Of a stretch of DNA of 64,000 nt, positions 5,853 to 60,208 are shown in pieces. Positions within the stretch are counted from its first letter, which is position 1; every line of letters begins with the position of its first letter. Both the position numbers and the translations under genes were made by a program. The stretch is from Candidatus Palauibacter scopulicola (lineage in GTDB: Bacteria; Gemmatimonadota; Gemmatimonadetes; Palauibacterales; Palauibacteraceae): the NCBI RefSeq assembly GCF_947581915.1, contig NZ_CANPWG010000038.1:89429-153428 (forward strand). Reading direction: 5' to 3'. The notes under the pieces were generated by a model. That model had not been told where the DNA came from. It was given only the letters and a program-made list of their open reading frames with translations, and did not search any database.

Positions 5853-5883
5853 CGCCCCGCCCCTCGCGGCGGGGCGTTTTTTT
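5853..5883 (+). terminator. Rho-independent terminator after the csp gene
   Basis: Perfect 9-bp stem (cgccccgcc / ggcggggcg) with a 6-nt loop and a T7 run. Confidence 0.7.
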
Positions 5884-5963
5884 GTCGCCGGGCTTTGCCG
5901 CGGACGGCCCCAGGGACATACTGGATGCCATGTTGACCCTCCCCGCCGGCCCGTGAACGCCGT

Positions 5964-8771: not shown

Positions 8772-10030
8772 ACGCAGCCCGGACCGTCCTCATCGCCTGG
8801 ACATTGTGTGTGCTCACGTGTGCGCTCGCGTGCGCGCCGCCGCCCACGCCCGACAGTTCCGTGCCGGAAGGGGCTGCGGACGGCTCCCCCCAGGCGATCG
8901 TGGAGTCCTCGCTGCTGCCCACCTTCACGGTTCGGGGCGAGCCGGTCGTGCGGTCCTCGCTCGCCGACCGCATGGCCGAACTGGGTGTGCCCGGCGTGAG
9001 CGTCGCCGTCCTGGTCGACGGCGAGATCGCCTGGGCTCGCGGCTACGGGCTCGCCGACGTCGAATCGGGCCGCCCCGTGACGCCGAACACGCTCTTCCAG
9101 GCGGCCTCCATCTCCAAGCCCGTGGCCGCGCTCGCCGCGCTGCGGCTTGTCGAATCGGGCCGCGTTGACCTCGATGGCGACGTCAACGCCCACCTCACGA
9201 GCTGGCAGGTGCCCGACAACGAGTTCACGGAGCAGGCGCCCGTCACCCTGCGGGGGCTCCTCACGCACCGGGCCGGCCTCACCGTGTGGGGCTTCCCGGG
9301 CTACGGGCCGGCCGAGGAGGCGCCGGACGGGCCGGGCGTCCTCGACGGGCGCGGCAACACGGACCCCGTGCGCGTCTACAAGGCGCCGGGGGAGAGCTGG
9401 CGCTACTCCGGGGGCGGCTACACCGTGATGCAGCAACTCGTGGCGGACGTCCGCGGCGCACCGTTCGCCGAGGTCATGCGCGAGGAGGTGCTCGACCCGA
9501 TCGGCATGACGCGCTCGACGTACGAGCAGCCGATTCCCCCCGAGCGCCAGGACGACATCGCGACGGGCTACCGGCCGAACGGCGACCGGGTTCCCGGCGG
9601 GTGGCATACTTATCCGGAACAGGCGGCCGCCGGACTGTGGACGACGCCGAGCGAACTCGCGCTCTACGCCCGGGAGATGCAGCGTGCCTGGAAGGGCGAG
9701 TCGACCCGCGTGCTGGGAGAAGCGCTCGCGCGAGAGATGCTGACGCCCGACGCCGACGACTGGGGACTGGGCCCGGCGATCTCGGAGGATGGCGAACGCT
9801 TTCGGCACGGCGGCTCGAACCAGGGCTTCCGCTGCACGTTCGCGGCGTACATCGACGGCGACGACGGCGTCTTCGTGATGACGAACTCCGACTCGGGGAG
9901 CGAGCTCGCGGCGGAGATCGCGATCACGGTGGCGGACGCATACGGCTGGTCCGGACCCCGCGCCGCAGAGAGGGCGCCGGGCGAGGAAGGCACAGGAGCA
10001 GGCACAGAAGCAGGCACAGAAAGGGAGTAG
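8768..10030 (+). CDS. Serine hydrolase, beta-lactamase/PBP family lipoprotein
   Basis: GTG start overlaps the polA stop (GTGA). Lipobox (ALACAPP). Active-site motif SISK (QAASISKP). Confidence 0.75.
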   Translation: MNAARTVLIAWTLCVLTCALACAPPPTPDSSVPEGAADGSPQAIVESSLLPTFTVRGEPVVRSSLADRMAELGVPGVSVAVLVDGEIAWARGYGLADVESGRPVTPNTLFQAASISKPVAALAALRLVESGRVDLDGDVNAHLTSWQVPDNEFTEQAPVTLRGLLTHRAGLTVWGFPGYGPAEEAPDGPGVLDGRGNTDPVRVYKAPGESWRYSGGGYTVMQQLVADVRGAPFAEVMREEVLDPIGMTRSTYEQPIPPERQDDIATGYRPNGDRVPGGWHTYPEQAAAGLWTTPSELALYAREMQRAWKGESTRVLGEALAREMLTPDADDWGLGPAISEDGERFRHGGSNQGFRCTFAAYIDGDDGVFVMTNSDSGSELAAEIAITVADAYGWSGPRAAERAPGEEGTGAGTEAGTERE

Positions 10031-36135: not shown

Positions 36136-37638
36136 ATGCGTCCCGTAGTCCCCGCCCCCGCCCCCGCCGCGCTCCTCGCGCTCGTCGGCGTCGCCCTGCT
36201 CGCCGGGTGCGGAGGCGCCGGAGATCCGGCTACGTCCTCCGACCTCGCGCGCGGGATCGACGCCGTGTTCGCCGACCTGGACCGCCCGGGCTCGCCGGGC
36301 GCCGCCGTATCGGTCATCCGCGACGGTGAGATCATCCACTCGCGCGGCTACGGCTACGCGCAGATCGAGCATGGCGTCCCCGTCACCCCGCGCACGGTCT
36401 TCCACGTCGCCTCCGTGTCGAAGCAGTTCACGGCCATGGCGGTGACGATGCTCGCGGCCGAAGGGGCGCTCTCGCTGGACGACCGCGTGCAGGCGCACCT
36501 TGGGTTCGTCCCCGAGTTCGAGCATCCGGTCACCGTCCGCCAGATGATCCACCACACGAGCGGGATCCGGGACCAGTGGCAGCTTCTCGGGATCTCCGGC
36601 TGGCGCCTCGACGACGTGATCACGACCGAGCAGATCCTCGGCCTCATGTCGCGCCAGCGGGAACTCAACTTCGTGCCCGGCTCGGAGTACCTCTACTCCA
36701 ACATGGGCTACACCCTCCTCGCCCGGACGGCGGCGGCGGTCAGCGGGATGTCCTTCCCGGAGTTCACCGCCGCGAGGATCTTCCGGCCGCTCGGCATGGA
36801 CCGCACCCACTCCCACGACGACCACGAACACATCGTCCCCGACCGGGCGTATTCCTACCGGCCGGCAGCCGCGGACGAGGATGAGGGAGACGGCGGGGGG
36901 CCGGGCGCGGAGTACACCAAGGCGGTCCTCAGCTACGCGAACGCGGGGGCGACGAGCCTCTTTACGACCGCGGACGACCTCGCCCGCTGGCTCGACAACT
37001 TCCGGCACGAGACGGTCGGCGGCCCGGAGGTGATGGAGATGATGACGACGCGCGGGGTCCTGAACAGCGGAGATACGATCCCCTACGCGCACGGCATCAG
37101 CATCGGCGACCACCGGGGGCTGCGCACGGTGGGGCACGGGGGGGCCGACGCGGGGTTCCGGACGCAGGCGACCTGGTATCCCGAGGCGAACGTCGGGGTC
37201 GTCGTCCTCACGAACGTCGCCAACGGCAACCCGGGTGGCCGGGCGCGGCAGGTGGCGGAGGTCGTCCTCGCCGAGGTCTTCCCCGAGGCGGAGCCGGAGG
37301 AGGAAGAGGATCCGCCGTCTCCGCCCGCCGATTCCGTCGCGCCCCCGACGCCCGACGCCGCGACGCTCGCCGGTTACGCGGGCAGCTACTACAGTCCGGA
37401 ACTCGACGCCCTGTACCACCTCGAGGCAACGGGCGAGGGGCTCGTCGCGCGCCACATACGCCACGGCGACATCGCCCTCGAGCCGCGCGCCCGCGACGAA
37501 TTCGCCACGGACCGCTGGTTCATGCGCGAGGTGCGCTTCGAGCGCGCGCCCGACGGCTCCGTCTCGGCGATGCGCGTGGGCGGCGGCCGGGTCCGAAACC
37601 TGCTCTTCATCAAGCTCGCCCGCCCACTCCCCAGGTAG
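36136..37638 (+). CDS. Serine hydrolase, beta-lactamase family lipoprotein (paralogue of 8768-10030)
   Basis: Lipobox (LLAGCGG). SVSK active-site motif. YSN motif (LYSNMGY). Confidence 0.75.
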   Translation: MRPVVPAPAPAALLALVGVALLAGCGGAGDPATSSDLARGIDAVFADLDRPGSPGAAVSVIRDGEIIHSRGYGYAQIEHGVPVTPRTVFHVASVSKQFTAMAVTMLAAEGALSLDDRVQAHLGFVPEFEHPVTVRQMIHHTSGIRDQWQLLGISGWRLDDVITTEQILGLMSRQRELNFVPGSEYLYSNMGYTLLARTAAAVSGMSFPEFTAARIFRPLGMDRTHSHDDHEHIVPDRAYSYRPAAADEDEGDGGGPGAEYTKAVLSYANAGATSLFTTADDLARWLDNFRHETVGGPEVMEMMTTRGVLNSGDTIPYAHGISIGDHRGLRTVGHGGADAGFRTQATWYPEANVGVVVLTNVANGNPGGRARQVAEVVLAEVFPEAEPEEEEDPPSPPADSVAPPTPDAATLAGYAGSYYSPELDALYHLEATGEGLVARHIRHGDIALEPRARDEFATDRWFMREVRFERAPDGSVSAMRVGGGRVRNLLFIKLARPLPR

Positions 37639-37738: not shown

Positions 37739-38386
37739 ATGAAATTCATGCAGTTGCTGGAAATCGTCGCGGATGAGCCCGTGTTCGAGACCGGATTCCT
37801 TCGCAGCGGGCGCGCCCGGGAGCCGGGTCTGGAGGCGCAGCTCAGCCGTTGGTGCGCCGCCGGCAAGCTGCTGCGGCTCCGGCGCGGCTTGTTCGCGCTG
37901 GCGCCGCCGTACCGGAAGGTGATTCCGCATCCCTTCCTCCTCGCCAACCGGCTCTCGCCCGGCTCGTACGTGAGCGGGCTGTCGGCGCTCGCCTTCGCGA
38001 ACGCGATCCCGGAGTACGTCCCGGAGGTCACCAGTTGCGGGCCCGCGCGTCCCCACGTGCGGGAGACGCCGCTGGGGCGGTTCTCCTTCCGCTACGTGAA
38101 GCCGGAGTTGCGGACCGGCTATCGGCTCGTGAGCCTGGTCGACGGACAGAGCGCGTTCGTCGCCCGCCCCGAGAAGGCCTTCCTCGACCTCGCGCACCTG
38201 CAGCCGGGCGGAGATGCTCCGGCCTGGATCGACGCACTGCGGCTGGACTTCGAGGCACTCTCGTCCACGCGCCTGCGAGCGGCTGCGGCCGCCACGGGGA
38301 GTCCGAAGCTGGTCCGCGCCGCGGCGCACGTCATTCGCCGCGCGAGCAATCCGGCGTCCGCTTACGAACCCCTGCCCGTCACGTGA
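37739..38386 (+). CDS. AbiEi-family antitoxin / transcriptional regulator (type IV TA)
   Basis: AbiEi_4-like N-terminal winged helix and C-terminal domain. Precedes and overlaps AbiEii (GTGA). Confidence 0.65.
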   Translation: MKFMQLLEIVADEPVFETGFLRSGRAREPGLEAQLSRWCAAGKLLRLRRGLFALAPPYRKVIPHPFLLANRLSPGSYVSGLSALAFANAIPEYVPEVTSCGPARPHVRETPLGRFSFRYVKPELRTGYRLVSLVDGQSAFVARPEKAFLDLAHLQPGGDAPAWIDALRLDFEALSSTRLRAAAAATGSPKLVRAAAHVIRRASNPASAYEPLPVT

Positions 38387-40091: not shown

Positions 40092-40214
40092 CAGTTGTAC
40101 CTCTAGTTGTACCTCTATTGGAACCTGCCGACGTCCGAGCTGGTCCAATCATGGGGGACCGCGCCCGGGTCAGCTTCACGGGTTGATCGTCACGGAAACA
40201 CGAAGGTACGCGAT

Positions 40215-41783
40215 ATGTCCGAACGAACGAAACGCGCACGCCAAGGCGGCCGCGGCCTCCGCCTCCTGGCGGCGCCGATCCTGACGATCGCAGTCGGCGC
40301 CGGCGCTCCGGAACGGGTCGCCGCGCAGGCGGCCATGGGCGCGGCGGAAGAGCCGGCCACCGTCCTGTTCACGAACGCGACGCTCGTCGACGGGACGGGT
40401 GCGCCCGGATATGTCGGGGACCTGCTCATCGAGGGGGGGGCCATCGCGGCGCTCGGCGCCCCGGGTTCCATCGAGGCTCCGCCCGACGCGGAACGGCGCG
40501 ACCTCACGGGTCTCGTCCTCGCCCCGGGCTTCATCGACATCCACAACCACTCCACGAACCGCCTGTTCGACTTCCCGCTGGCCACGACCCAGCTCGCGCA
40601 GGGGATCACGACGATCGTGGTCGGGGCCGACGGCTCCTCGCCGTGGCCGGTCGCGGACTACCTCGGGCGCATCGATGAACTCCGGCCCACGGTGGATGTC
40701 GCGACGCTCGTCGGGCACGGGACCGTGCGCAGTCTCGTGCTGGATGAGGATTTCCGGCGCACGGCGACCGACGCCGAGATCGCGGACATGACGGTTCGCG
40801 TCGAGCGCGGGATGGCGGAAGGTGCGTTCGGCCTCTCGAGCGGCCTCGAGTACGACCCCGGCTTCTACTCCACGACGGGCGAACTCATCGCCCTCGCGCG
40901 GGCCGCGGCGGACCACGGCGGCTTCTATATGACCCACATGCGCGACGAGGAAGAGGGGCTCCTCGAAGCCGTCGACGAGGCCATCCGCATCGGGCGCGAG
41001 GCGGGCCTCCCCGTGCAGATGTCGCACATCAAGGCGGGGAACGCCTCCGTGTGGGGACGGGCGCCCGACGTGCTGGAGCGGATCCGGCGGGCGAACGAGG
41101 AGGGACTGGACGTGACGGCGGACCAGTACCCGTACCAGGCCTGGCAATCCGGGCTCGCGATCGTGGTCCGTTCGAGGATGTTCACGAACCCGGACTCCGT
41201 GGCGAAGGGGATCGCCGCGGCGGGCGGCGGGAACCGGCTGCAGATCGTCGCCTTCTGGTCCGAACCCGAACTGAACGGACTGAGGCTGGACGAGATCGCC
41301 CGGCGCCGGGGGATGACGGACGTCGAAGCCTACATTTGGATCATGGAGAACGGGGGCTCGGGGCTCATCGGCCACACGATGAACGAGGAGGACGTCGATA
41401 CGTTCATGGCCTCGGAGTGGGTGATGACGGCGAGCGACGGCGGGGTGCGGAGCGCGCACCCGCGCGGGGCGGGGACCTTCCCGCGCGTGCTGGGCCACTA
41501 CGTGCGGGAGCGCGGCATCCTGACGCTGGAGCGTGCGGTGCGGCGCGCGACCTCGCTGCCGGCGCGGCGGCTGGGGCTGGACGACCGGGGCGTGCTGCGC
41601 GCCGGAGCCCGGGCCGACCTCGTGATCTTCGACCCGGAGCGCGTGGTGGACCGGTCGACGTTCGACAACGGGACCCGGCAGGCGGAGGGCGTGGAGAGCG
41701 TGTGGCTCGGCGGCATCGAGACCTGGTCCGCCGGGGAGCCGACCGGCGCCCGCCCCGGCCGCGCCATCCGGCACGCGCGCTGA
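40215..41783 (+). CDS. N-acyl-D-amino-acid deacylase (D-aminoacylase) family amidohydrolase
   Basis: Signal-like N-terminus. GFIDIHNHS metal motif. D-aminoacylase C-terminal region. Confidence 0.75.
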   Translation: MSERTKRARQGGRGLRLLAAPILTIAVGAGAPERVAAQAAMGAAEEPATVLFTNATLVDGTGAPGYVGDLLIEGGAIAALGAPGSIEAPPDAERRDLTGLVLAPGFIDIHNHSTNRLFDFPLATTQLAQGITTIVVGADGSSPWPVADYLGRIDELRPTVDVATLVGHGTVRSLVLDEDFRRTATDAEIADMTVRVERGMAEGAFGLSSGLEYDPGFYSTTGELIALARAAADHGGFYMTHMRDEEEGLLEAVDEAIRIGREAGLPVQMSHIKAGNASVWGRAPDVLERIRRANEEGLDVTADQYPYQAWQSGLAIVVRSRMFTNPDSVAKGIAAAGGGNRLQIVAFWSEPELNGLRLDEIARRRGMTDVEAYIWIMENGGSGLIGHTMNEEDVDTFMASEWVMTASDGGVRSAHPRGAGTFPRVLGHYVRERGILTLERAVRRATSLPARRLGLDDRGVLRAGARADLVIFDPERVVDRSTFDNGTRQAEGVESVWLGGIETWSAGEPTGARPGRAIRHAR

Positions 41784-41835: not shown

Positions 41836-42240
41836 TCAGTCGGCGGCCGCCTCCCCGCGCTCGGCGGTCGCGACGATCTCGATGCCGCCGCGCACGTTCT
41901 GCTCCACCTCGACGCGCACCCGGCGCGGCGCCACGGCGTAGACCACGTCGTCGGCGATCCGGGCCGCGAGCGTCTCGCAGAACTCCCCCTCGTCCCGGAA
42001 CGACCACAGGTAGAACTTGAGCGCCTTCGACTCCAGGCAGCGGTCGCGCGGCTCGTAGTCGATCGTCACCCGTCCGAAGTCCGGCTGTCCCGTCTTGGGG
42101 CACAGCGAGGTGAACTCCAGCGCCCGCAGCCGGACGCGCTGGATGTCGGCCGCCGGGATCGCCTCCGCGCGCAGCGTCTCGCGTCCCTCCTCCGGATCCC
42201 GGGGCCGCGGCAGCGGACCCGCGGCGGGGAGTCTCGTCAT
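41836..42240 (-). CDS. queF: NADPH-dependent 7-cyano-7-deazaguanine reductase
   Basis: Unimodular QueF motifs (EFTSLCPKTGQPDF; E(S/L)K-type motif ESKALKFYLWSFR). Confidence 0.85.
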   Translation of the reverse strand: MTRLPAAGPLPRPRDPEEGRETLRAEAIPAADIQRVRLRALEFTSLCPKTGQPDFGRVTIDYEPRDRCLESKALKFYLWSFRDEGEFCETLAARIADDVVYAVAPRRVRVEVEQNVRGGIEIVATAERGEAAAD

Positions 42241-43481
42241 CCGTCCTCCGTCCCTTCGTCCATCTCTTCATCGTCATCGTTATCGTTCTGCGTCATCGCA
42301 TCGACGGTCGTGGCGGCGGCCATGTGGCCGATGACGTTCGTCGCCGAGCGGAAGACGTCGGGCACGCGGTCGATCCCGAGCAGGATCCCGAGTCCGGCCA
42401 GCGGCACGCCCACGACATCGAGCGCCGGCACCATCGACACGATGCTCGCGCTCGGCACCGGTGCCACCGTCATGGCGGCGAGGAAGATCGCGAGGACCGC
42501 CGCGGCGATCAGTCCCGCGTCGAGCGGCACCCCGTACATGGCCGCGAGGAAGACGAGCGACGCGCTCTGGAAGAGGGCGCTCCCCGGCCGGTTGATCGAG
42601 GCCGCCAGTGGGAGGATCAGCCGGTAGCGGTCCTGCCGGAGCCCCAGCTTCTCCGCCTCCTGCAGCATCATCGGCAGCGTGCCCACCGACGTCGTCGTGG
42701 AGAAGCCCACGGTGTACGTCCCCACCGTGCCGCGGATGAAGCGCCCCGCCGGCATGCCGCCCACGAAGCGGACCATCGGCAGCAGGATGAGACCCTTGAG
42801 GATGAAGAGGCCCACGACGACCGCGAGGATGAAGACGGCGAGGTTCTGGAGCAGCGCCAGCCCCGTGCGCGCGACCACCGGCGCCGCGAGGCCGAACACG
42901 CCAACGGGCGCCGTCCACAGGACCCAGTTCATGAGCTTGATAAGCGCGTCGCCGAGCGACTCCGCGAATCCCGTGAGCGTCTCCCGCTTCTCCCGCGGCA
43001 GCGTCGTTGTGGCCGCCGCGAGAAGGACGGTGAAGATGAGGATCGAGAGCAGCGACCCATCCGCCGCCGCCTGTACCGGGTTCCTGGGCACGAGGTTCAC
43101 GAGGAAGTCGATCACGCCCGGGTTCGCCGTGTTCAGTTCCGTCGTCGGCGTCGGGGGCGGCACCGGCGCCGTGAAGGTGAGCGCGAAACCCATCACGCCC
43201 ATCCCGATGAGGATCGCCGGCAGCGTCGTGACCCAGAAGAAGCCGACCGAGAGGCCGCCGATCCGCCCCAGCTTGCGGAGGTTTCCGATCCGCGCCACGC
43301 CGACGAACACGACCGCGGCCACGAGCGGAATCACGACCATCTGGATCGCGCGCAGGAAGACCTGTCCGAGCGGCGCGACGGCCTCGGCCGCCCGCAGGAG
43401 CGCGGGAGATCCGGTGGCGGAGGCCGCGACGCCGAGCCCCAGCCCGAGCACGAGGCCGATGAGAATGGCGCGCGTGTTCAC
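42237..43481 (-). CDS. Dicarboxylate / amino acid:cation symporter (DAACS, GltP/DctA-like)
   Basis: 414 aa, multi-TM. Overlaps queF by 4 nt. Confidence 0.7.
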   Translation of the reverse strand: MNTRAILIGLVLGLGLGVAASATGSPALLRAAEAVAPLGQVFLRAIQMVVIPLVAAVVFVGVARIGNLRKLGRIGGLSVGFFWVTTLPAILIGMGVMGFALTFTAPVPPPTPTTELNTANPGVIDFLVNLVPRNPVQAAADGSLLSILIFTVLLAAATTTLPREKRETLTGFAESLGDALIKLMNWVLWTAPVGVFGLAAPVVARTGLALLQNLAVFILAVVVGLFILKGLILLPMVRFVGGMPAGRFIRGTVGTYTVGFSTTTSVGTLPMMLQEAEKLGLRQDRYRLILPLAASINRPGSALFQSASLVFLAAMYGVPLDAGLIAAAVLAIFLAAMTVAPVPSASIVSMVPALDVVGVPLAGLGILLGIDRVPDVFRSATNVIGHMAAATTVDAMTQNDNDDDEEMDEGTEDG

Positions 43482-44605
43482 GTCCCCTCGCTCCCTTCGG
43501 TTGTCCCGGCGGTTCCCGCTTCTCGCCGCTTACGGAACGCGAGCCACGCGCCGACGGTGAGGACGGGCAGGACGTAGTAGACGATGAACCCCCACGTGAT
43601 CGTCCCGTATCCCTGGCGGATGAGGTCGATGAGGCCGAGAGGAGTGAGGGAGAGCGCGACCCCGAGGAAGACCGCCGCGACCGCCGGCCGCGCCCAGCTC
43701 GGCATCCCGGCCCCCCGCTCGCGCCGCGTGACGGCGAGCCGCTCGTTCACCGCGTGGATCATCCCCGTCCCGGTCTCGATCAGGGTGCCGAAGAGGATGA
43801 CCTGGTAGGCGATCTGGAACGTCCTCGACCCGAGCGTCTCGAGGATGAAGTTCGAGGGAACGGTCGCGTCGACGATCGCGGGGTAGTGCGGCACCATCGC
43901 GAGGTAGAAGAAGAACGCCGGCAGCATCCCGATGACGCCGGCCAGCAGTCCGGCCCACACGGCCTGGTTCCGGGTCCGGATGTGGCGCACGGTGAACAGG
44001 GCCACGGCGGCGGCGGAGAGGTTGTAGCCGCCGTACTGGACCCCCTTCACGAGCCAGTCGCCGTCGAGGCTGCTGGCGGCGAAGCTCGGGCCCAGCGTGG
44101 ACCCGAAGCGCACCAGCGACCACACGACGAGCGCCACGAACACGGCATAGAGGGCGAACGACCAGCCGGCGAAGAAGCGCTCGATCGCGGCGCTGCCGTA
44201 GAAGAGGAGCAGCGCGACCGCGCCCAGGGCCACGATCACGCCCAGCCAGTAGGGGAGTCCGAAGGTCTCGTCCGCGATCGAGCCCGCCGCCGCCCCGATG
44301 ACGGCCAGCACGAGCAGCGTCAGCAGCACGTACGTGACCTCGAACAGGGCCCAGGACGGCCCGAGCAGCCGCTTGAAGAAGGTGCGGTACTCGTAGCTGC
44401 GGGACTGCCGCGCGAGTTCGAACGTGACCGCGCACACCGCGCTCCAGATCGCGGTCGAGAGCGCCATCGCCCACAGGCCGGGCGTGGGGCCGATCGAGAG
44501 GAAGAACTCGACGTTCTCCCGCCCGGTGCCGTATCCGCCGGCGATGACGGCCGACTGGAAGACGAGCCCCGGCAGCAGATAGCGGCGGAACCAGGGAGCT
44601 TTCAC
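43478..44605 (-). CDS. YkvI-family membrane protein (putative permease)
   Basis: 375 aa, multi-TM. GTG start after AAAGGGA. Overlaps the DAACS gene by 4 nt. Confidence 0.55.
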   Translation of the reverse strand: MKAPWFRRYLLPGLVFQSAVIAGGYGTGRENVEFFLSIGPTPGLWAMALSTAIWSAVCAVTFELARQSRSYEYRTFFKRLLGPSWALFEVTYVLLTLLVLAVIGAAAGSIADETFGLPYWLGVIVALGAVALLLFYGSAAIERFFAGWSFALYAVFVALVVWSLVRFGSTLGPSFAASSLDGDWLVKGVQYGGYNLSAAAVALFTVRHIRTRNQAVWAGLLAGVIGMLPAFFFYLAMVPHYPAIVDATVPSNFILETLGSRTFQIAYQVILFGTLIETGTGMIHAVNERLAVTRRERGAGMPSWARPAVAAVFLGVALSLTPLGLIDLIRQGYGTITWGFIVYYVLPVLTVGAWLAFRKRREAGTAGTTEGSEGT

Positions 44606-44738
44606 GCTGGCGTCCCTTTCTCTCGGCCGGCCCCTGCCCCAAGGTTTCGCCCGTCAGCGAGGGGCGAGTGCACCGGGGCGCCGGGCGCCGGCGGCCACAT
44701 GCGACCCGCCAAGCTACTCTCGACACCGAGGGCCGGCG

Positions 44739-47414
44739 ATGGAACGAGACAGCCGAGAGACGTTCGGCTCACGCTTCGGGCTCGTGGCCACGATGATCGG
44801 CGTCGCCGTCGGTCTCGGGAACGTGTGGCGCTTCCCGTACATGGTCGGCGAGTTCGGCGGGGCTCCCTTCGTGGCCTTCTACGTCCTCGCCGTGGTGCTG
44901 ATCGGCGTTCCCGCGCTCATGGCGGAATGGACGCTGGGCCGGCACACCCGCCGCGGCCCGGTCGGCGCGTTCGAGTCGGCCGGTCTCCCCTTCGGCCGCG
45001 CCCTCGGCTGGATCTTCTTCGTCGGCGTCACCGCGGCCACCGGCTACTACTCGAACGCGCTCGGCTGGGTACTGTACCACGCCCTGGCCGGGCTGCTCTC
45101 CGGCGTCGGGATCGAGATCGCCGCCGCCGCGATCCTGCCCCCGGACGAGGGGTTTTCGCTGCGCTCCTTCCTCCTGCAGTGCGTCTGCACCGGCGCGGTG
45201 CTCCTCACCTGCGCCGCGGTGCTGCGGCGCGGCCTCCGGGGCGGGATCGAGAAGGCGAGCCGCTTCATCGTGCCGGCGCTCCTCGGCGGCCTCCTCATCC
45301 TCATCATCCGCTCGCTCACGCTGCCCGGCGCGGGCGAGGGCCTCCGCTGGTACCTCGGCGCCTTCGATCCCGGCGCGCTCACGCCGCCCGTCATGCTGGG
45401 GGCGCTGGGCCAGGCGATCTTCAGCCTCTCGCTGGGCGGCACGTTCATGGTCGTGTACGGCTCCTACCTGAACCGCGGCGACCCTCTGCGCGGCAACGCC
45501 GTCTTCACCGCGGGCGGCGACCTGTGCGCCGGACTCCTGGCGGGGCTCGCCATCTTCCCCGCCGTGTTCGCCTTCGGGCTCGAACCGGCGAGCGGTCCCG
45601 GTCTCCTCTTCGTCACGCTGCCCGACGTGTTCGGGCAGATCCCGGCCGGGGCCGTGTTCGGGACGCTCTTCTTCCTGGCGCTGTTCGGGGGCGCCTACCT
45701 GTCGGACGTGGCGGCGCTGGAGGTGCTGGTGGCCGGGGTCACCGACAACACCGGGATCGGGCGCTCGCGCGCCGTCACGCTGACGACCGTGGTCGTGTTC
45801 GCGTTTGCGCTGCCCCCGATGATCAACATGAACGTGTTCACGCCCTGGGATCTGACCTTCGGATCGGGTTTCCAGACGCTCGGCGCGCTGCTCTCGGTTG
45901 TCGCCGTGGGGTGGGCGCTGGACCGCTCCGAAGTGCTGCGGCAACTGGCGGCGGGCGAGGATGGGCCCCGCGGGCGGCGGGTGCCCACGCTCTGGCTCTA
46001 CTACTGGCTCCGCTTCGTCATCCCCGCCGCGATCCTCGCCGTCGGAGCCTGGTGGCTGCTGCGGGACGTGCTGGGCAATGCGGGCGCCGGCCCGCCGCCC
46101 GCTGCCCGGGCCACTCTGGCCATCGAGGAGGTCTCGGTCCTTCCGATGGATGGCGAGCGCGTGCTCGCCGGCGTGACGGTGCTCATCGGCGACGGCCGCG
46201 TGCTCGCCGTGAGTCCGTCGGCCGAAGCGGAGGTCCCGGACGGCGCCGAGCGGGTCGACGGCCGCGGCCGCTTCCTCATCCCGGGCCTCCACGACATGCA
46301 CGTCCACTTCGGGGAGGAGTCGGCGCTCGGGCGGTTCCTGGCCACCGGAGTCACCGGCGTGCGCATCCTGTCGGGCGGGCCGCACACGCTCGACTTTCGC
46401 GACCGCGTCCGGAGCGGCGCACTGGCCGGCCCGGACATCCACACGGCGGGGCCGATCATCGAGGGGTTGCCGCCGCCGGGGTTCGCCGCCGTCATCGACA
46501 CGGCGGGACGCGCGATCGTCCACGACAGCCTCGACGGCGCCCGCACTGTGCGGGAGCAGCATGCCGCCGGGTACGACTTCATCAAGGTGTACAACAACGT
46601 GCCCGCGGCGGCCTACCGGGGCGTCGTCGCCGAGGCGCGCGGGCTCGGGATCCCGGTGGCGGGACACGTGCCCTTCGAGGTGGGACTCGATGGCGTCCTC
46701 GCGGCGGGCCAGGCCAGCATCGAACACCTGCGCGGGTACATCTGGCACCTCGTGCCCGAGGAGGCGCCGGCCCAGCCCGGCCCTGATTTGCGGTCGCGCA
46801 CGCTCGCCTGGGCTCACGGAGATCCCGCGCGGATCGGAGCGCTCGCCGAGCGGACCCGCCGGGCCGGCTCGTGGAACGTGCCCACGCTCTCGGTCCGCAT
46901 GATTCACAAGCCGGACCGCCTCCTCGATGCGTACCTCGCCACGGAGGAGGCGTCGCACATGACCGCCGCCATGCGCCGCTTCTACACCGAGCGCATGTCG
47001 ATCCCCTGGATGAGCAACTTCTCGCCGGATGACTTCGAGGCCGCGCTGGATGGTTTCGCGGTGGCGGATTCCCTCATCCGCGCCCTCGTGGCCGCCGGCG
47101 CTCCCGTGATGGCCGGCACGGATACGCCGCCCCTCGGCTTCGCCCTCCATCGCGAACTGGAGGAACTCGTCGCGGCGGGTCTGTCACCGTACGAGGCGCT
47201 GCGGAGCGCCACGGTCAACCCGGCCCGCTTCCTCGGACGGGAGGGGGGCGCCGGCATGGTGGTCGACGGGAGCCCCGCCGACCTCGTGCTGCTGGAGGGC
47301 AATCCGCTGGAAGCGATCGGCAACACGCGCCGCATCGCCGGCGTCGCGAGGCGCGGCGAATGGCTCGACCGCGCGACACTGGACGCGATGCTGCGGGAGG
47401 CCGCAGGCCGCTGA
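44739..47414 (+). CDS. Fusion protein: N-terminal Na+-dependent NSS-family transporter plus C-terminal amidohydrolase domain
   Basis: NSS signature GLGNVWRFPY with about 12 TM helices. Extra hydrophobic segment (WLRFVIPAAILAVGAWWLL). C-terminal metal-dependent hydrolase domain (LIPGLHDMHVHF...AGTD). Confidence 0.75.
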   Translation: MERDSRETFGSRFGLVATMIGVAVGLGNVWRFPYMVGEFGGAPFVAFYVLAVVLIGVPALMAEWTLGRHTRRGPVGAFESAGLPFGRALGWIFFVGVTAATGYYSNALGWVLYHALAGLLSGVGIEIAAAAILPPDEGFSLRSFLLQCVCTGAVLLTCAAVLRRGLRGGIEKASRFIVPALLGGLLILIIRSLTLPGAGEGLRWYLGAFDPGALTPPVMLGALGQAIFSLSLGGTFMVVYGSYLNRGDPLRGNAVFTAGGDLCAGLLAGLAIFPAVFAFGLEPASGPGLLFVTLPDVFGQIPAGAVFGTLFFLALFGGAYLSDVAALEVLVAGVTDNTGIGRSRAVTLTTVVVFAFALPPMINMNVFTPWDLTFGSGFQTLGALLSVVAVGWALDRSEVLRQLAAGEDGPRGRRVPTLWLYYWLRFVIPAAILAVGAWWLLRDVLGNAGAGPPPAARATLAIEEVSVLPMDGERVLAGVTVLIGDGRVLAVSPSAEAEVPDGAERVDGRGRFLIPGLHDMHVHFGEESALGRFLATGVTGVRILSGGPHTLDFRDRVRSGALAGPDIHTAGPIIEGLPPPGFAAVIDTAGRAIVHDSLDGARTVREQHAAGYDFIKVYNNVPAAAYRGVVAEARGLGIPVAGHVPFEVGLDGVLAAGQASIEHLRGYIWHLVPEEAPAQPGPDLRSRTLAWAHGDPARIGALAERTRRAGSWNVPTLSVRMIHKPDRLLDAYLATEEASHMTAAMRRFYTERMSIPWMSNFSPDDFEAALDGFAVADSLIRALVAAGAPVMAGTDTPPLGFALHRELEELVAAGLSPYEALRSATVNPARFLGREGGAGMVVDGSPADLVLLEGNPLEAIGNTRRIAGVARRGEWLDRATLDAMLREAAGR

Positions 47415-47429
47415 CCCCCGCCCGCGGGC

Positions 47430-48548
47430 CTACTTCGTCCAGATCGCGACCACGCCGCACCGGGAACTGGATCCGCCGAACTCGGCCGGCAGCGATGCCG
47501 GACCCTTGTACACCTCGACGCCTCCGATTTCGACGGGCGACACCCACAGGTCAGCCTCGCCGAGGCTGCTGATGTGAACGCCATCGAGGTAAATCTGCAT
47601 GTGGCAACGCGAACCGGAACCGCTGGCCAGCCGCGTCGAGTACAGCCTGCAGGTGCGCGAACCCACACGACAATAGCGTCGGATCGACGCTTCCTCCATG
47701 ACCATGTCGGATATGACCCCAGGGTGGCGGCGCTCGATATCGGCCGCGGTGTAGAAGGTGCCGAGGCCGAGCAGTTCGCCCCAGCGCTTCCGCTCGTAGA
47801 AGCCCTTGATCTCCAGCCGGCGCAGGCGCACCGCCGTCGCCACGAGCGGTTCCATCTCGAGCGGAGCGGGGACCAGACCGATCTGGATGTCCGTGGTGGC
47901 TCCGCGGGCCACGTTGACCATGTGTCGCAGCGGAGCATACCCGAGATGCCGCACGGACAGTTCGTACACCCCCACCGGCACGTCGCTGAGGATGAATCCG
48001 CCCTGCCGGTTCGTCTGAACCGCCTGGGGACGGCCCCTGAGGGACACGGCGGCCGCGCTCACCGGAGCGTCGCTGAGGGCGTCCGTCACGGTGCCCAGCA
48101 GACGCCCATTCTCCACTGAAGCGACGCGAAGTCGGAGGACCACGTCCTGCACCGCCCCAGGCTGGAGCGGGACCTCCGTCTCGTCGCTGGCGGCGTCGCC
48201 GAACTCCGCCCACAGCGTAGCGCGCCCGACGCCGACGGGGACGCAGAGGACGAGTCGACCATCGGCCCCGGCCTGACCCCGCAGCGGCCCGTCCAACGCC
48301 CCCTCGTCTTCCGACGTCAGACGCACGGTCGCGAATGGAATCGGGATCGAGCCGGACTCATCCAGGACCGCGACCCCCAGGGGAACATCAGCGCCGCAGT
48401 CCTCCGTCTCCTGTCCCGCCAGCCCGGCGGCACCCGTCGCGAACGGCAGCGCGCCGAACAGGAGGCCGGTTCGCAGCGTCGCCCCACCCGTTTGCGCCGC
48501 GACGACGCAGCGGGACCGCTGCCGCGAGCATTCGCCCCGTTGATTCAT
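47430..48548 (-). CDS. TonB-dependent receptor N-terminal fragment: CarboxypepD_reg-like plus plug domains, no beta-barrel
   Basis: GGAGG upstream of the ATG. Plug motifs (IYLDGVHISS...VEIGGVEVYKGPAS...GVVAIWTK). ORF stops 16 nt from the convergent neighbour. Confidence 0.6.
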   Translation of the reverse strand: MNQRGECSRQRSRCVVAAQTGGATLRTGLLFGALPFATGAAGLAGQETEDCGADVPLGVAVLDESGSIPIPFATVRLTSEDEGALDGPLRGQAGADGRLVLCVPVGVGRATLWAEFGDAASDETEVPLQPGAVQDVVLRLRVASVENGRLLGTVTDALSDAPVSAAAVSLRGRPQAVQTNRQGGFILSDVPVGVYELSVRHLGYAPLRHMVNVARGATTDIQIGLVPAPLEMEPLVATAVRLRRLEIKGFYERKRWGELLGLGTFYTAADIERRHPGVISDMVMEEASIRRYCRVGSRTCRLYSTRLASGSGSRCHMQIYLDGVHISSLGEADLWVSPVEIGGVEVYKGPASLPAEFGGSSSRCGVVAIWTK

Positions 48549-48796
48549 GGCGCCTCCGAAGTACGTCCGTAAACGAGTTTCTCCGCGGAAGACCTGGCCG
48601 CTGACCGGCTTCGGTTGCGGCGGCACGATAGTCTGACGGCCAAATGTCGGGCGGCGTCACTCGTCACGCGGGCCCGCACTTGCAACGCGGCGCGGAGGTT
48701 GGTGAGGTTGGCCGTGAGATCCGGGTGCGCCGCCGGTCGAGGCGCCGGCCGCGTCGAGAGCCCATTTGGACCGCATCGGGCCATCGCAACGAGGAT

Positions 48797-50044
48797 TTGA
48801 ACATCCGCTACCGCACGCTTCCGGCGCTCTGCGCCCTTCTCCTTCTCCCGCAAGCTGCCGTCGGTCAGGAAGCTGTGCGCCGGGTCTCGCTCGCGCGGGC
48901 CCTGGAGGCGTTCGCGGAGAACAGCCTCGCGCTCAGGATCGCGCGCTCCGAGGCCGCCGAAGTCGCCGGAATCGCGCGCCAATCTCGTGTCTGGTTCAAC
49001 CCGTCGCTTTCGGTCAGGCGCGACGACCTCGACCGCAACGGCGACGAGTACTGGGAGGAGAATCTGCTCCTCTCTCAACCCCTGGAGTGGCCGGGTCGAA
49101 CCGCGGCCCGTCACCGGGCGGCCACCCACACGATCGAAGCGAGCGCCGCCCGTTTCCGCGGCGACTCGATGCGGCTCGCCTTCGACGTTCGCGAGGCCTG
49201 GGCGCTCGCGTGGTTCGCGGAAGCGGCGGAACGCACGGCGCGGCAGGCCGCGGCGGTGATCCGGGAGGTGGCGGAGGACGCGGAAATCCGCCTGGAGGAG
49301 GGGGACATCTCCGCCTACGAAACGAGGCGGTTACGACTGGCACGAGTGCGGGCCGAACAGGATGTGGCGGAGGCCGAACTCCGCGCCCGTGACGCGCGCC
49401 GGCGCCTCGCGGCGCTGACCTTTCCCGGCACGGGAATCGAGGAGGTCGGACCGTCCACGGGGCTTGAAGGGTTGCCGCCCCTGGTGACTCGAGATGACGC
49501 GCTGGGCGCGTTGCTCGAGCGGCCGGACCTGGAGGCCGCGGGCCGAGATCTGGACGCCGCGCAAGCCGAACTCGCCGTCGCGAGGTCCCGTTGGATGCCC
49601 GACCCGACCGTCAGCCTGGGATATCGCCGGCAGGAGGGCGGATTCGAGGGACTCAGCCTCGGTCTCGACCTTCCGTTACCGCTGTTCGACCGGGGAGCGG
49701 GAACCCGGCAGGCATCCGACGCCCGCAGCGCCGCGGCCGCCCATCGTCTCGACCTCCGGAGACGGCTGGCGGAGAACGATCTCCTGACGACCTCGGACCG
49801 CTACGCCTCCAGCCGCGCCCGTCTCGAAACAGCGGCCGATGGCTTGTCGGCGGATGCCGAGGCGCTGCTCGCCTCCGCGATGGCGGCCTACGGTGAGGAC
49901 GAAATGTCGCTCCTGGAGTTGCTCGACGCGGCGAACGCCTTCCGGGGCGCCCGGCTCAGCGCCCTCTCCATGCGATCCGCGGCGTGGATCGACTACTGGG
50001 ACCTCCTGCGCGCCATGGGAAGGGCCCCGGAACGCGAGCCGTGA
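48797..50044 (+). CDS. TolC-family outer-membrane efflux protein
   Basis: TTG start after GAGGA. Signal peptide (LPALCALLLLPQAAVGQEA). Two OEP repeats. Confidence 0.7.
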   Translation: MNIRYRTLPALCALLLLPQAAVGQEAVRRVSLARALEAFAENSLALRIARSEAAEVAGIARQSRVWFNPSLSVRRDDLDRNGDEYWEENLLLSQPLEWPGRTAARHRAATHTIEASAARFRGDSMRLAFDVREAWALAWFAEAAERTARQAAAVIREVAEDAEIRLEEGDISAYETRRLRLARVRAEQDVAEAELRARDARRRLAALTFPGTGIEEVGPSTGLEGLPPLVTRDDALGALLERPDLEAAGRDLDAAQAELAVARSRWMPDPTVSLGYRRQEGGFEGLSLGLDLPLPLFDRGAGTRQASDARSAAAAHRLDLRRRLAENDLLTTSDRYASSRARLETAADGLSADAEALLASAMAAYGEDEMSLLELLDAANAFRGARLSALSMRSAAWIDYWDLLRAMGRAPEREP

Positions 50045-50102: not shown

Positions 50103-52517
50103 ATGCACCCGAACGAACTGACGCCCGCACAGCAGGCCGCCGCGGAGGATCCGGATCGGCTCCCCGGGCTCGCCGACGCCGAGTTCACGGCGCTGGGCCG
50201 CCGCGCGCGCCGGGTCGAGGGGCTGCGCAAGTCGACCGGCCGCGAGATCTACACGGACGACATCGTCCTGCCGGGCATGCTGCACGGGAAGATCCTCCGC
50301 TCCACCGAGGCGCACGCGCGGATCGTCTCCATCGACACGTCCGAAGCCGAGGCCCTCGACGGCGTGTACGGCGTCATCACCGGACGGGACCTGCCGACGC
50401 CGTACGGGATCATCCCCTGGACGCGCGACGAGCACGCCCTCTGCTTCGACAAGGTGCGCTTCATCGGAGATGCGGTGGCTGCCGTGGCCGCGGTCGACGA
50501 GGACACGGCGAACGCGGCGCTCGGGCGCATCCACGTCGAGTACGAGCCGCTTCCCGTCTATCTCTCGCCCGAGGAGTCGCTGACGCCCGAGGCCGCCGCG
50601 GAGCCCATCCACGCGCCGCGCAAGCCGGGGGCGAACGGCAACGTCCTCAAGCACGTCCACCTCGAGTTCGGGGACGTGGACGCGCGGATGGCGGAAGCGG
50701 ACGTCACGATCGAGGGGGAGTACTTCTTCCACGGGACGACGCACACGCCGATCGAGCCGCACTGCGCGATCTCCCGCCTCAACCCGGATGGCGCCCTCGA
50801 GGTGTGGTCCTCGACGCAGGTCCCGCACTACCTGCAGCGCGAACTCGCGCGGGTGCTCGACCACGACGTGGCGAAGGTGCGGGTCGTACAGCCGGCCGTC
50901 GGCGGGGCCTTCGGCGGCAAGTCCGAGCCGTTCGATCTCGAGTTCTGCGTGGCGCTCCTCGCGATGCGCACGGGCCGTCCGGTGAAGATCCTCTACACGC
51001 GCGAGGAGCTTTTCTACTCGCACCGCGGCCGCCACCCCATGCACATGAAGTATCGGCTCGGCGCCTCGCGCGACGGGAAGCTCCGGGCGCTCGACGCGCA
51101 CACGACGCTGGACGGGGGCGCCTACGCCTCGTTCGGTCTCGTGACGACGTACTACTCGGGGCAGCTCCTCACCTCGCCCTGCCACATCGAGTCCTACCGC
51201 TTCGACTCGACCCGGGTCTACACGAACGTGGCCCCGTGCGGCCCCAAGCGCGGCCACGGCTCGGTACAGCCGCGCTTCGCGTACGAGATCTCGCTGGACA
51301 AGATGGCCGAGAAGCTCGGCCTCGACCCGTTCGAACTCCGCCGCCGCAACTTCATGGGCACGGGTCGGACGGTGAACGAGTTCAAGGTCCAATCCAACGG
51401 CTTCCTGGAGTGCCTCGAGGCGGTGGAACGCGCCAGCGACTGGAAGAAGCGCCACCGGCGGCTGCCGAGGGGTCGCGGTCTCGGGATGGCGGCCTCCTCG
51501 TACATCTCCGGCACGAACTACCCGATCTACCCGAACGCGATGCCCCAGGCGGCGGTGCAGGTGCAGATCGAGCGCTCCGGCCGGGTCGCGATCCTGCACG
51601 GCGCCTCGGAGATCGGGCAGGGGTCCGACTCCACGATGGCCTACATCGCGTGCGAGGAACTCGGCGTCCCGCTCGAATACGTGCGCGTCTTCTCCGCCGA
51701 CACGGACCTCACGCCGGTGGACCTGGGCGCCTACTCCTCGCGCGAGACCGTCATGGTGGGGAACGCCTGCGTCGAGGCCTGCCGTACGCTGCGCGCGCAG
51801 GTCGAGGAAGCCGTCGGGGAGCAGTGGGGCGTGCCGGCGCCGCGGGTCCGTCTGGCCCGCGGCTGGGCTTTCGACGCGGAGGCTCCCGAAGACGCCGGCC
51901 GCCGGATCCCGATCTCCGAGGCGTTCAACGTCGCCGAGACGAAGTTCGGACTGCTCGGCGCCGTCGGCTCCTACGACACGCCGAAGGATGTCCACGGCGA
52001 GTACCGCGGCGGCACGATCGGATCCTCGCCCGCCTACTCGTTCACCGCGCACGTGGCCGAAGTCGAGGTCGAGGAGGACACGGGCGTCGTCGGCGTGAAG
52101 AACATCTGGGTGGCGCACGACTGCGGCCGCGCGCTCAACCCGGTGCTCGTCGAAGGCCAGATCGAGGGCTCCGCCTACATGGGCTTCGCTGAGGCGATCT
52201 TCGAGGAGCAACTCTTCCGCGAAGGAGAGGTGGAGGGCGGCCTGCATACGTCGCCGTCGCTCCTCGACTACCGGATCCCCACCTCCATGGACTGCCCGGA
52301 GTTCGAGGCGCTCATCGTCGAGTCAGTGGATCCGGAAGGCCCGTACGGCGCCAAGGAGGCGGGCGAGGGGCCGCTGCACCCGTCGCTCCCGGCGATCGCG
52401 AACGCGATCCACGACGCGGTCGGCGTCCGCCTCGATGCGCTCCCCTTCACGCCGCAACGCGTGTGGAGAGCCCTGCGCGCCCACGCCGCCGGGGCCGCGC
52501 GCGAGGACGTCGCCTGA
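50103..52517 (+). CDS. Molybdopterin-binding large subunit of XDH-family oxidoreductase (orphan)
   Basis: 804 aa. Aldehyde-oxidase / XDH a/b hammerhead and Moco-binding domains (GGAFGGK, AGEGP). Confidence 0.8.
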   Translation: MHPNELTPAQQAAAEDPDRLPGLADAEFTALGRRARRVEGLRKSTGREIYTDDIVLPGMLHGKILRSTEAHARIVSIDTSEAEALDGVYGVITGRDLPTPYGIIPWTRDEHALCFDKVRFIGDAVAAVAAVDEDTANAALGRIHVEYEPLPVYLSPEESLTPEAAAEPIHAPRKPGANGNVLKHVHLEFGDVDARMAEADVTIEGEYFFHGTTHTPIEPHCAISRLNPDGALEVWSSTQVPHYLQRELARVLDHDVAKVRVVQPAVGGAFGGKSEPFDLEFCVALLAMRTGRPVKILYTREELFYSHRGRHPMHMKYRLGASRDGKLRALDAHTTLDGGAYASFGLVTTYYSGQLLTSPCHIESYRFDSTRVYTNVAPCGPKRGHGSVQPRFAYEISLDKMAEKLGLDPFELRRRNFMGTGRTVNEFKVQSNGFLECLEAVERASDWKKRHRRLPRGRGLGMAASSYISGTNYPIYPNAMPQAAVQVQIERSGRVAILHGASEIGQGSDSTMAYIACEELGVPLEYVRVFSADTDLTPVDLGAYSSRETVMVGNACVEACRTLRAQVEEAVGEQWGVPAPRVRLARGWAFDAEAPEDAGRRIPISEAFNVAETKFGLLGAVGSYDTPKDVHGEYRGGTIGSSPAYSFTAHVAEVEVEEDTGVVGVKNIWVAHDCGRALNPVLVEGQIEGSAYMGFAEAIFEEQLFREGEVEGGLHTSPSLLDYRIPTSMDCPEFEALIVESVDPEGPYGAKEAGEGPLHPSLPAIANAIHDAVGVRLDALPFTPQRVWRALRAHAAGAAREDVA

Positions 52518-60000: not shown

Positions 60001-60208
60001 GCTCACTTCCCTGACCACGTTCCTCGGCTTCACGCCCCTGATCCTCGAGCGCGCGATCCAGGCCCAGTTCCTGATACCGTTTGCCGCTTCGCTCGGTTGC
60101 GGCATTCTCTTCATAACGGCCATACTTATGATGGTGGTTCCGGCGCTATGCACTCTACATCTGCGCTTGATGCCGTCGCGGCGTCCTTCGATTCCGAGCG
60201 CCGCATAG
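57001..60208 (+). CDS. RND efflux permease (AcrB/CzcA family), interrupted by a +1 frameshift at 58090-58093
   Basis: Two adjacent ORFs (57001-58236 and 58124-60208) together align with one RND permease. The frame changes within a T4 run (LVALSLF | LQVRLALWVAV). Confidence 0.75.

Follow-up and report, generated by a model that had tools for sequence, protein, structure and literature searches.

Extracytoplasmic partner domains fused in cis are found in ATP-binding cassette (ABC) importers that carry substrate-binding domains, e.g. OpuA and GlnPQ, and genes for neurotransmitter:sodium symporters (the NSS family) occur in operons with catabolic enzymes, as in the TnaT-tryptophanase and Tyt1-tyrosine phenol-lyase systems. 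On the enzyme side, Cc2672, the hydrolases of Xaa-Pro and N-acyl-Pro substrates and the ochratoxinases liberate a free amino acid. The NSS transporter MhsT has only 11 transmembrane (TM) helices (PMC11459141), and the Sgx9260 prolidases cleave Xaa-Pro dipeptides and N-acyl-prolines (PMC11511702). In this work we analyzed a stretch of 64,000 nucleotides from Candidatus Palauibacter scopulicola (contig NZ_CANPWG010000038.1, positions 89,429 to 153,428; the whole stretch is hereafter called the window), in which a single open reading frame (ORF) joins an NSS transporter to an amidohydrolase (AH) domain that is predicted to lie in the periplasm.

Transporter and Hydrolase Are Encoded in One Reading Frame

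The fused ORF extends from position 44739 to position 47414 of the forward strand, starts with ATG and consists of 891 codons plus a stop codon. The G+C content at third codon positions (GC3) of this frame was 0.92 overall and ranged from 0.84 to 1.00 in every 150-nt block, the block of the junction included. Two other long ORFs overlap the fused one (1010 aa on the forward strand and 793 aa on the reverse strand), and they are of the usual spurious kind, because long ORFs are expected by chance in a window whose GC content is about 70%. The fused protein was recognized by the transporter families Pfam SNF (PF00209; 143.4 bits, cutoff 27) and NCBIfam Na_transp (87.4 bits, cutoff 50), as well as by the Pfam families Amidohydro_1 (PF01979; 50 bits, cutoff 25) and Amidohydro_3 (PF07969; 42.6 bits, cutoff 29.7). 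The GC3 profile and the Pfam scores therefore confirm the two-domain ORF at these coordinates, in agreement with the original prediction, made from the nucleotide sequence alone, of an 891-aa ORF in which an NSS core is followed by an amidohydrolase domain; the two motifs that it had named, GLGNVWRFPY and HDMHVHF, are both present.

The same 891-aa protein was found, with no differences, on seven contigs from three independent assemblies, i.e. ERZ23500025, ERZ27276917 (MEGAHIT) and Logan SRR10996929, and the DNA of the junction was identical across these contigs. A second fused version of 888 aa and 92% identity (P0001, at the locus L001) was present on four contigs from at least two other assemblies. 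When the window was compared with L001 (dS about 0.25), the NSS half had a dN/dS of 0.135 and the hydrolase half one of 0.20, values comparable with those of the unfused orthologues (0.11-0.16 for the transporter and 0.21-0.22 for the hydrolase). The 15-codon linker was relaxed, with a dN/dS of 0.83 in the same comparison, and it contained a 3-codon in-frame indel. Because the junction recurs across assemblies and dN/dS is low on both sides of it, both halves are under purifying selection and have been kept as coding sequence in one frame. The fused gene is a genuine and evolutionarily recent in-frame fusion, young and rare, in Candidatus Palauibacter-like Gemmatimonadota.

The Transporter Half Is Predicted to Have 11 Transmembrane Helices

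The transporter core comprises aa 1-448 of the fused protein (positions 44739-46082, +) and was assigned to the MhsT type by Pfam SNF, the alignment with MhsT and an AlphaFold2 (AF2) model. The best relative of aa 1-460 in the PDB was MhsT (4us3, 455 aa), with an E value of 1e-55 and an alignment spanning aa 3-435, residue 435 of the fused ORF being equivalent to residue 445 of MhsT. The alignment with LeuT reached its residue 467 (aa 439 of the fused ORF), which lies within TM11 by the helix boundaries of LeuT. In the AF2 full-length model, whose predicted local distance difference test (pLDDT) score was mostly above 90 in the NSS half, 11 TM helices were found at aa 12-39, 42-70, 86-120, 141-163, 165-193, 216-241, 250-278, 304-337, 342-362, 364-393 and 414-448, with breaks in TM1 (aa 23-26) and TM6 (aa 229-236) as are characteristic of the LeuT fold. 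Lys and Arg residues numbered 10 in the predicted cytoplasmic loops versus 2 in the periplasmic ones. A Kyte-Doolittle scan with windows of 19 residues and a threshold of 1.5 revealed, past aa 448, a sole window that reached this value (aa 773-791; 1.55, at the threshold), and this window is located within the hydrolase barrel. The unfused NSS orthologues end 5-9 residues past the sequence ...WWLL[R/T]DVLG.

The original prediction had counted about 12 helices and an extra hydrophobic segment behind them, a count that has to be corrected to 11 according to the MhsT alignment and the AF2 model, since the supposed extra segment is TM11 itself (aa 414-448; positions 45978-46082, +). This helix is predicted by the alignment and the model to run from the cytoplasm to the periplasm, and it would now be the membrane anchor of the hydrolase. 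Taken together, these data indicate that the transporter is an 11-TM NSS protein of the MhsT type, resembling Na+/amino-acid symporters in sequence, and, because the core is of the 11-TM type, its C terminus is predicted to be on the outer face of the membrane. The rule that NSS proteins have 12 TM helices fails here, which calls for caution on the part of annotators.

Ungapped alignment with LeuT and MhsT revealed the signatures of the NSS fold, i.e. G25, L26, G27, N28, R31, Y104, F228, S229, L230, S231, L232 and G233, where Y104 is the Tyr of TM3 to which the substrate carboxylate binds in this family. The unwound motif of TM1, G25-L26-G27-N28 (positions 44811-44822, +), corresponds with an offset of +1 to G24-L25-G26-N27 of LeuT and belongs to the region of the substrate carboxylate and the Na1 ion. 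Residues of the substrate and Na1 sites of LeuT and MhsT are retained at A23, G25, G27, N28, R31, Y104, F228, S229, S231, D261 and S322, and, R31 excepted, they are those to which the alpha-amino group, the alpha-carboxylate group and Na1 are bound in those two transporters, the Na1-site equivalents being A23, N28, S229 and D261. The position of LeuT F259 (Met in MhsT by alignment) is occupied by Gly234 and that of LeuT I359 by Ala326, which suggests a roomy side-chain pocket.

The Hydrolase Half Is Predicted to Be an Exported Binuclear Amidohydrolase

Homologues of the hydrolase half were searched for with aa 445-891. The unfused orthologues, one of them labelled Candidatus Palauibacter sp., have 473-482 aa and are 80-87% identical over the whole domain, and their extra 25-45 N-terminal residues are lipoprotein signal peptides, with lipoboxes such as ...LTVLVAC-DPRGGPPPATPATLAIE and ...LASLLAC-SPDAG.... 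An N terminus resembling a signal peptide was detected in 97 of the 107 homologues and a lipobox in almost all of the closest ones (77-87% identity); the 10 homologues without a signal peptide were mostly truncated. No lipobox of the form L-x-x-C was found in the fused gene, whose junction, ...DVLGNAGAGPPP, does not contain Cys. It appears from these N termini that the hydrolase is natively an exported protein. The host is taken to be a diderm because genes for OmpH/Skp and for a TolC-like outer membrane efflux protein (OEP) are located near the fused gene, and therefore "outside" means the periplasm.

The 11-TM core and the signal peptides of the homologues thus agree in placing the hydrolase domain, as predicted from sequence and model, in the periplasm, opposite the N terminus of the transporter. 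A periplasmic amidohydrolase had been proposed before on the grounds of an odd number of TM segments; the side and the parity stand, and the reason given for them (12 helices plus one) is replaced by the natural C terminus of an 11-TM transporter.

The amidohydrolase domain comprises aa 460-891 (positions 46116-47411, +) and was assigned by Pfam, an AF2 model and Foldseek to the (beta/alpha)8-barrel enzymes of the cog1228/M38 group. The AF2 model of this domain alone had a pLDDT of 96.3 and a predicted TM-score (pTM) of 0.94. Mixed full-length alignments in which MAFFT had put NSS-only sequences onto the hydrolase half were dropped. The full-length model was built on the only set that gave a correct alignment, one that included the 20 closest AH sequences, and the domain was modelled separately. 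In Foldseek searches against the PDB, the domain model matched structures of the cog1228/M38 group only, with a probability of 1.00 to amidohydrolase structures, E values from 2e-26 to 1e-19, TM-scores of 0.62-0.74 and identities of 19-25%. The matches included the "prolidases" 2p9b and 2qs8, the Lys/Arg carboxypeptidase Cc2672 (3mtw), the Arg carboxypeptidase 3be7, Sgx9260b/c (3mkv, 3n2c/3feq), the ochratoxinases 4c5y and 8ihs (ADH3), and the bottromycin amidohydrolase 6i5s; apart from 4c5y, these had E values of 2e-26 to 1e-23. Such a structural search had been proposed as a route to the substrate, and it led to the cog1228/M38 class with no specific substrate assigned.

All six ligands of the binuclear metal site are intact and were invariant in 108 sequences. 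They are H521 and H523 of the H-x-H motif in strand 1 (positions 46299-46307, +); K616 in strand 4 (positions 46584-46586, +), the predicted carboxylated bridging Lys, which aligns with the Lys of the IKI/IKV motif of 9kov and 2p9b; H643 in strand 5 (positions 46665-46667, +); H663 in strand 6 (positions 46725-46727, +), within a SIEH motif that aligns to 2p9b and 9kov; and D795 in strand 8 (positions 47121-47123, +), within an aligned GTDT motif. The further family-invariant residues E662, R665, H804 and E806 are also kept in the fused protein. Its sequence and modelled structure place the domain in the binuclear amidohydrolase superfamily, among the cog1228/M38-like proteins and in no characterised equivalog, and catalysis is predicted.

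The Fusion Probably Arose by Deletion between Adjacent Genes

The linker that joins the two halves, aa 449-459 (GAGPPPAARAT; positions 46083-46115, +), matches the first residues past the lipobox Cys in the unfused orthologues; the junction peptide of the fused protein reads ...DVLGNAGAGPPPAAR. At the locus L004 (the contig of the orthologue P0044), an NSS gene of 451 codons, ending in ...DVLGVFSGV and a stop codon, is followed after a spacer of 83 bp by the gene of a lipoprotein amidohydrolase of 473 aa. This locus is syntenic with the window: OmpH, Amidohydro_3, QueF, SDF and the 375-aa membrane protein are encoded upstream, and xanthine dehydrogenase (XDH) is encoded downstream. The junction reads ...DVLG-NAGAG-PPPAARATLAIEE in the window and ...DV-RGAGAPPADRVTLAIED in L001, and the unfused hydrolase of the locus L091 continues after its lipobox as C-APAGVSPPAARATLAIEG; the residues that follow the junction in the fused proteins match those past the lipobox Cys in the unfused ones.

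Because the same two genes are separate, and 83 bp apart, in L004, the fusion is likely to have arisen by deletion. Starting from an ancestral state such as that of L004 (an NSS gene, 83 bp and a lipoprotein hydrolase gene), a deletion of about 190 bp would have taken out the end of the NSS gene (~5 codons and the stop codon), the spacer, and the signal peptide together with the lipobox. TM11 would then take over from the lipid anchor of the hydrolase, and the catalytic domain would be held about 11 residues from the end of TM11, at the periplasmic mouth of the transporter. The breakpoints are no more than about 3 codons away from the lipobox Cys and from the NSS sequence DVLG, and they could be placed no more finely because the sequences are too diverged. 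Such a fusion would be topologically neutral, because the periplasm is both where TM11 ends and where the hydrolase natively resides, as predicted above. All these results considered, we regard as fairly probable the account in which a real and recent fusion of adjacent genes by deletion produced a protein with a periplasmic hydrolase, intact catalytic and transport residues, both halves under purifying selection and a putative cleave-and-import function. On this account the gene would be a clean and datable case in which a lipoprotein signal peptide was swapped for the last helix of a transporter with an odd number of TM helices.

The Locus Exists in Several States in Close Relatives

The closest genomes are Gemmatimonadota metagenome-assembled genomes, several of them named Candidatus Palauibacter, and the hydrolase is found in the same locus as in the window in L004, L091, L003 and L008. 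In the region from NSS to XDH, the two genes are fused in the window and L001, split by an 83-bp spacer in L004, and split by a spacer of 1 kb, with an in-frame stop in the hydrolase, in L091; the block hydrolase-CarboxypepD_reg-OEP is inverted in L003 and L008, and L010, L012 and L013 have no hydrolase gene at this locus. By comparison of these sequences, the NSS-to-XDH segment is a rearrangement hotspot in the relatives of Candidatus Palauibacter. In the window, the block continues behind the fused gene at positions 47430-50044 with the genes of a CarboxypepD_reg protein (positions 47430-48626, -) and an OEP/TolC-like protein (positions 48644-50044, +); two genomes that are not sisters have this three-gene block in inverted orientation, and others lack part or all of it.

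Two observations were made on L091 (6449-8903 of a 3.75-Mb long-read contig). An in-frame TGA between IIEG and PPPEF splits its hydrolase into ORFs of 159 and 300 aa, which is either a pseudogene or a consensus error at 16x coverage, and the 1-kb stretch between NSS and hydrolase has stops in all three forward frames.

The nucleotide identity of the window in NSS, the 375-aa protein gene and SDF was about 95% to L008 and L010 and about 92% to L001, so that the fused state occurs in two lineages that are about 8% apart in nucleotide sequence. Since the window is nearer to L008 and L010 than to the fused L001, the fused state is not monophyletic on these three genes, and it would either have arisen twice or result from a single fusion followed by rearrangement or recombination. 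A phase-variable inversion toggling between fused and lipoprotein forms was rejected, because inverted repeats flanking both breakpoints were not found, apart from weak GC-rich chance repeats, and no remnant of the signal peptide (the 5' end of the hydrolase gene) was found at the OEP-XDH junction, where the spacer is 58 bp and matches L010. The L008 sequence that was compared ends 13 nt upstream of the mature hydrolase N terminus.

Distribution of the Architecture

The same architecture had been expected to be worth looking for in other genomes. Beyond the P0001/L001 lineage it was not encountered: among 38,229 matches in 1.84 billion representative sequences, none of the best 150 covered both halves, and the long matches were tandem amidohydrolases or lactonase-amidohydrolase fusions. 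A pattern of DNA spanning the junction gave no match in JGI metagenome contigs, and a literature search for an NSS/amidohydrolase fusion gave none either. The protein P0164, 97% identical to aa 122-447, was rejected as the product of a chimeric contig in which an AcrB fragment is joined to NSS; its NSS part ends with ...DVLGVTVGLASP, the C terminus of the unfused L008 type, and it shows that assembly chimeras exist in protein collections.

Two relatives of the NSS half (P0003 and P0009; 55-59% identity) continue past TM11 into a beta-propeller of about 340 aa of the BNR/PSII-Ycf48-like/sortilin type. By its sequence this propeller would be another type of domain attached to an 11-TM NSS transporter at the periplasmic C terminus, and its occurrence at the same position in a sister clade suggests that 11-TM NSS proteins can easily acquire such domains.

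Alternative Explanations and Possible Coupling of the Two Halves

If the fused ORF were an artefact of assembly or sequencing, or a pseudogene, with two separate genes misjoined, it would be easy to understand that these genes are separate in close relatives, and the in-frame stop in the hydrolase of L091 does show that the locus can decay. Nevertheless, the identical junction in three independent assemblies from different assemblers, the second fused lineage with its in-frame linker indel of 3 codons, the uniform GC3 over the junction and the dN/dS of 0.14-0.20 on both sides effectively refute this explanation, and the fused assembly, stop or frameshift against which the original prediction had warned finds no support. 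The hydrolase could also be cytoplasmic, through an even TM count or the wrong parity, and process the imported substrate inside the cell, as might be thought from the many NSS proteins (LeuT, eukaryotic SLC6) that have 12 TM helices and a cytoplasmic C terminus; however, the alignment ends in TM11 of LeuT, both MhsT and the AF2 model have 11 helices, the positive-inside bias fits an outside C terminus, and the hydrolase belongs to an exported family, 97 of 107 homologues having signal peptides or lipoboxes, which makes a cytoplasmic location highly improbable. It is likewise very unlikely that the domain has turned into a non-catalytic periplasmic receptor or gate, comparable to the substrate-binding domains of ABC importers. 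Although a short linker tethers it to the periplasmic face, and a non-enzymatic propeller occupies the same position in the sister NSS clade (P0003, P0009), the six metal ligands and E662, R665, H804 and E806 have been retained, and the fused hydrolase, with a dN/dS of 0.20, does not differ in this respect from the free enzymes (0.21-0.22).

Whether the enzyme feeds the transporter is a different question. In a coupled protein, the hydrolase would cut a peptide or an N-acyl-amino acid in the periplasm, and the attached symporter would import the released L-amino acid together with Na+. Such a release of a C-terminal or N-acylated amino acid outside the cell, followed by its import, is topologically and chemically plausible, and we propose it tentatively, since most structural relatives of the hydrolase liberate free L-amino acids and the transporter retains the amino-acid-binding residues of MhsT and LeuT. 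About equally likely is an opportunistic or neutral fusion, in which unrelated neighbors were joined by deletion and tolerated because both ends are periplasmic, the halves working independently and with no hand-over of product. The adjacency of NSS and hydrolase is limited to one genus, in a rearrangement hotspot with fused, split, inverted and absent states; across the wider NSS subfamily, the partner that is conserved is a class-V pyridoxal phosphate (PLP) enzyme encoded upstream (43 of 73 loci) and not an amidohydrolase; the hydrolase orthologues of the Longimicrobiales have a different context; and no other fusion was seen in the top 150 matches among the representatives. On the other hand, a neutral fusion would have to be reconciled with two fused lineages, about 8% apart in nucleotide sequence, in which both halves are still under purifying selection, with the complementary chemistry of the two halves, and with the Longimicrobiales locus L061, which independently has a signal-peptide amidohydrolase 85 bp downstream of NSS.

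Several results weigh against coupling as well as against a more precise assignment. Within the genus the pairing is unstable: L010, L012 and L013 lack the hydrolase gene at the locus, and L003 and L008 carry it in inverted orientation on the opposite strand. Among the 62 loci of the NSS subfamily with at least 1.5 kb of downstream sequence, only 3 have an amidohydrolase-like gene nearby, and in one of these (L061, mentioned above) it is a different amidohydrolase. The neighbors of the 80%-identical hydrolase orthologues in the Longimicrobiales are another amidohydrolase gene, an arginase-family gene and an amidase gene, with no NSS gene among them. The hydrolase half had a pLDDT below 50 in the full-length AF2 model, which therefore provides no usable geometry between the domains. 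In the transporter, the Na2 site has S322, and the position of LeuT T354 is taken by Leu321, with Asp323 adjacent. As for the enzyme, its identity to characterised enzymes is low (20-25%, query-normalised TM-score 0.64-0.74), and the equivalog model of the Caulobacter-type Xaa-Pro dipeptidase (NCBIfam NF051886) gave 84.2 bits against a cutoff of 500, with only the C-terminal ~95 residues aligning well; therefore, the class of chemistry can be transferred to the fused enzyme, and the substrate cannot.

A stronger version of the coupling hypothesis holds that the fusion arose twice, in the lineages of the window and of L001, under selection for a cleave-and-import unit whose product is caught at the mouth of the symporter, which would make it the first NSS transporter with a catalytic extracytoplasmic domain. 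Two fusion events would be consistent with the inverted or absent hydrolase in L008 and L010, which are nearer to the window than L001 is, and with the difference of 3 codons between the two junctions, and selection for the pairing would be consistent with the exported amidohydrolase located directly past NSS in a distant Longimicrobiales genome. We nevertheless consider this version doubtful.

If the two halves do cooperate, the protein would be a natural outward-facing enzyme tethered to a secondary transporter, an arrangement limiting the diffusive loss of the hydrolysis product that is perhaps useful in a crowded sponge microbiome (the host bacterium is sponge-associated) and of interest for the engineering of uptake pathways. 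The effect of tethering comes with built-in controls, i.e. the split genes (L004), the rearranged ones (L003, L008) and a locus from which the enzyme is absent (L010), and the fusion is experimentally tractable because these natural split, inverted and absent forms exist.

Genomic Context of the Two Partners in Other Loci

In two Longimicrobiales loci (L005 and L006, at about 4500-8800), the gene of the 80%-identical lipoprotein hydrolase overlaps a second Amidohydro_1 gene by 4 nt and is divergent from the arginase-family gene and the amidase gene, with an S9 peptidase nearby. The substrate might accordingly be one from which arginine or a guanidino compound is formed, and we mention this as a lead only.

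The class-V aminotransferase-fold PLP enzyme of the NSS subfamily is encoded immediately upstream of NSS, on the same strand and at a distance of 3-90 bp, in the 43 loci mentioned above (within L020-L087), and in L061 its gene (2847-3980) overlaps that of NSS. It received no specific NCBIfam assignment, with weak matches to SufS, EgtE and kynureninase. In metabolism, the NSS subfamily probably has this enzyme as its true conserved partner; as a clue to the substrate it is again a lead only. An apparent fusion, or mis-call, of the class-V PLP enzyme and NSS was observed in P0008.

Other Genes of the Window

Upstream of the fused gene, an Amidohydro_3 protein is encoded at positions 40107-41783. 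It had been predicted to be a D-aminoacylase, an identity that could not be established, its best NCBIfam match being PRK09061 with 190 bits against a cutoff of 340. Further transporters had been predicted just upstream, and an SDF (GltP/DctA-like) transporter was found at positions 42237-43481 (-). Adjoining it is the gene of a divergent 375-aa multi-TM protein at positions 43478-44605 (-), which has no family match and is syntenic in all the relatives. A scan of positions 44450-47650 for promoters and terminators detected no promoter-like site and one terminator-like site, which lies inside the ORF and is at chance level.

Elsewhere in the window, a 675-aa ORF at positions 60243-62270 (+) has a GPP34/GOLPH3-like domain in its N-terminal part (aa 13-213, E 1e-29) and a cytochrome P450 in its C-terminal part (aa 397-646, E 1e-33), an unusual pairing for a bacterium. 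The ORF of an AcrB/RND pump at positions 58124-60208 (+) covers only positions 367-1016 of a profile of 1021, and the first third of the pump must sit in another upstream ORF or frame, whether because of a frameshift, because the gene is split or because the start was set wrongly. Genes of AbiEi-like antitoxins recur beside these loci (positions 37739-38386, +, in the window; 1-1363 in L004 and 8906-10590 in L005), together with AbiEii in the relatives. The window also contains two genes of the beta-lactamase fold (D-aminopeptidase-like; positions 8768-10030 and 36136-37638) and two large subunits of the xanthine dehydrogenase family (positions 14252-16693 and 50103-52517).

Comparison with Known Systems

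With the cog1228/M38 enzymes the hydrolase half shares the fold and the ligands H-x-H, carboxylated Lys, His, His and Asp, and most of these relatives split an amide bond to give a free C-terminal amino acid (PDB titles; PMC11511702). Unlike them, it is anchored by a transporter helix, and about one-third of the domain, a helical stretch located between strands 6 and 8, would be without a counterpart in the group. The unfused orthologues (P0044, P0045 and others) differ from the fused protein in bearing a lipoprotein signal peptide where the latter has the NSS transporter. MhsT of Bacillus halodurans has in common with the transporter half the 11 TM helices, the outside C terminus, the GLGN motif of TM1, the Tyr of TM3, the F-[ST]-L-S-L-G motif of TM6 and the Asp of TM7; however, MhsT terminates just past TM11, whereas the fused protein continues for 443 residues. 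OpuA and GlnPQ, TnaT and Tyt1 likewise bring a supplier or consumer of the substrate beside the permease, but their partners are binding proteins or separately encoded cytoplasmic enzymes, whereas in the protein described here a catalytic domain would be covalently attached to a secondary transporter on the outer side of the membrane.

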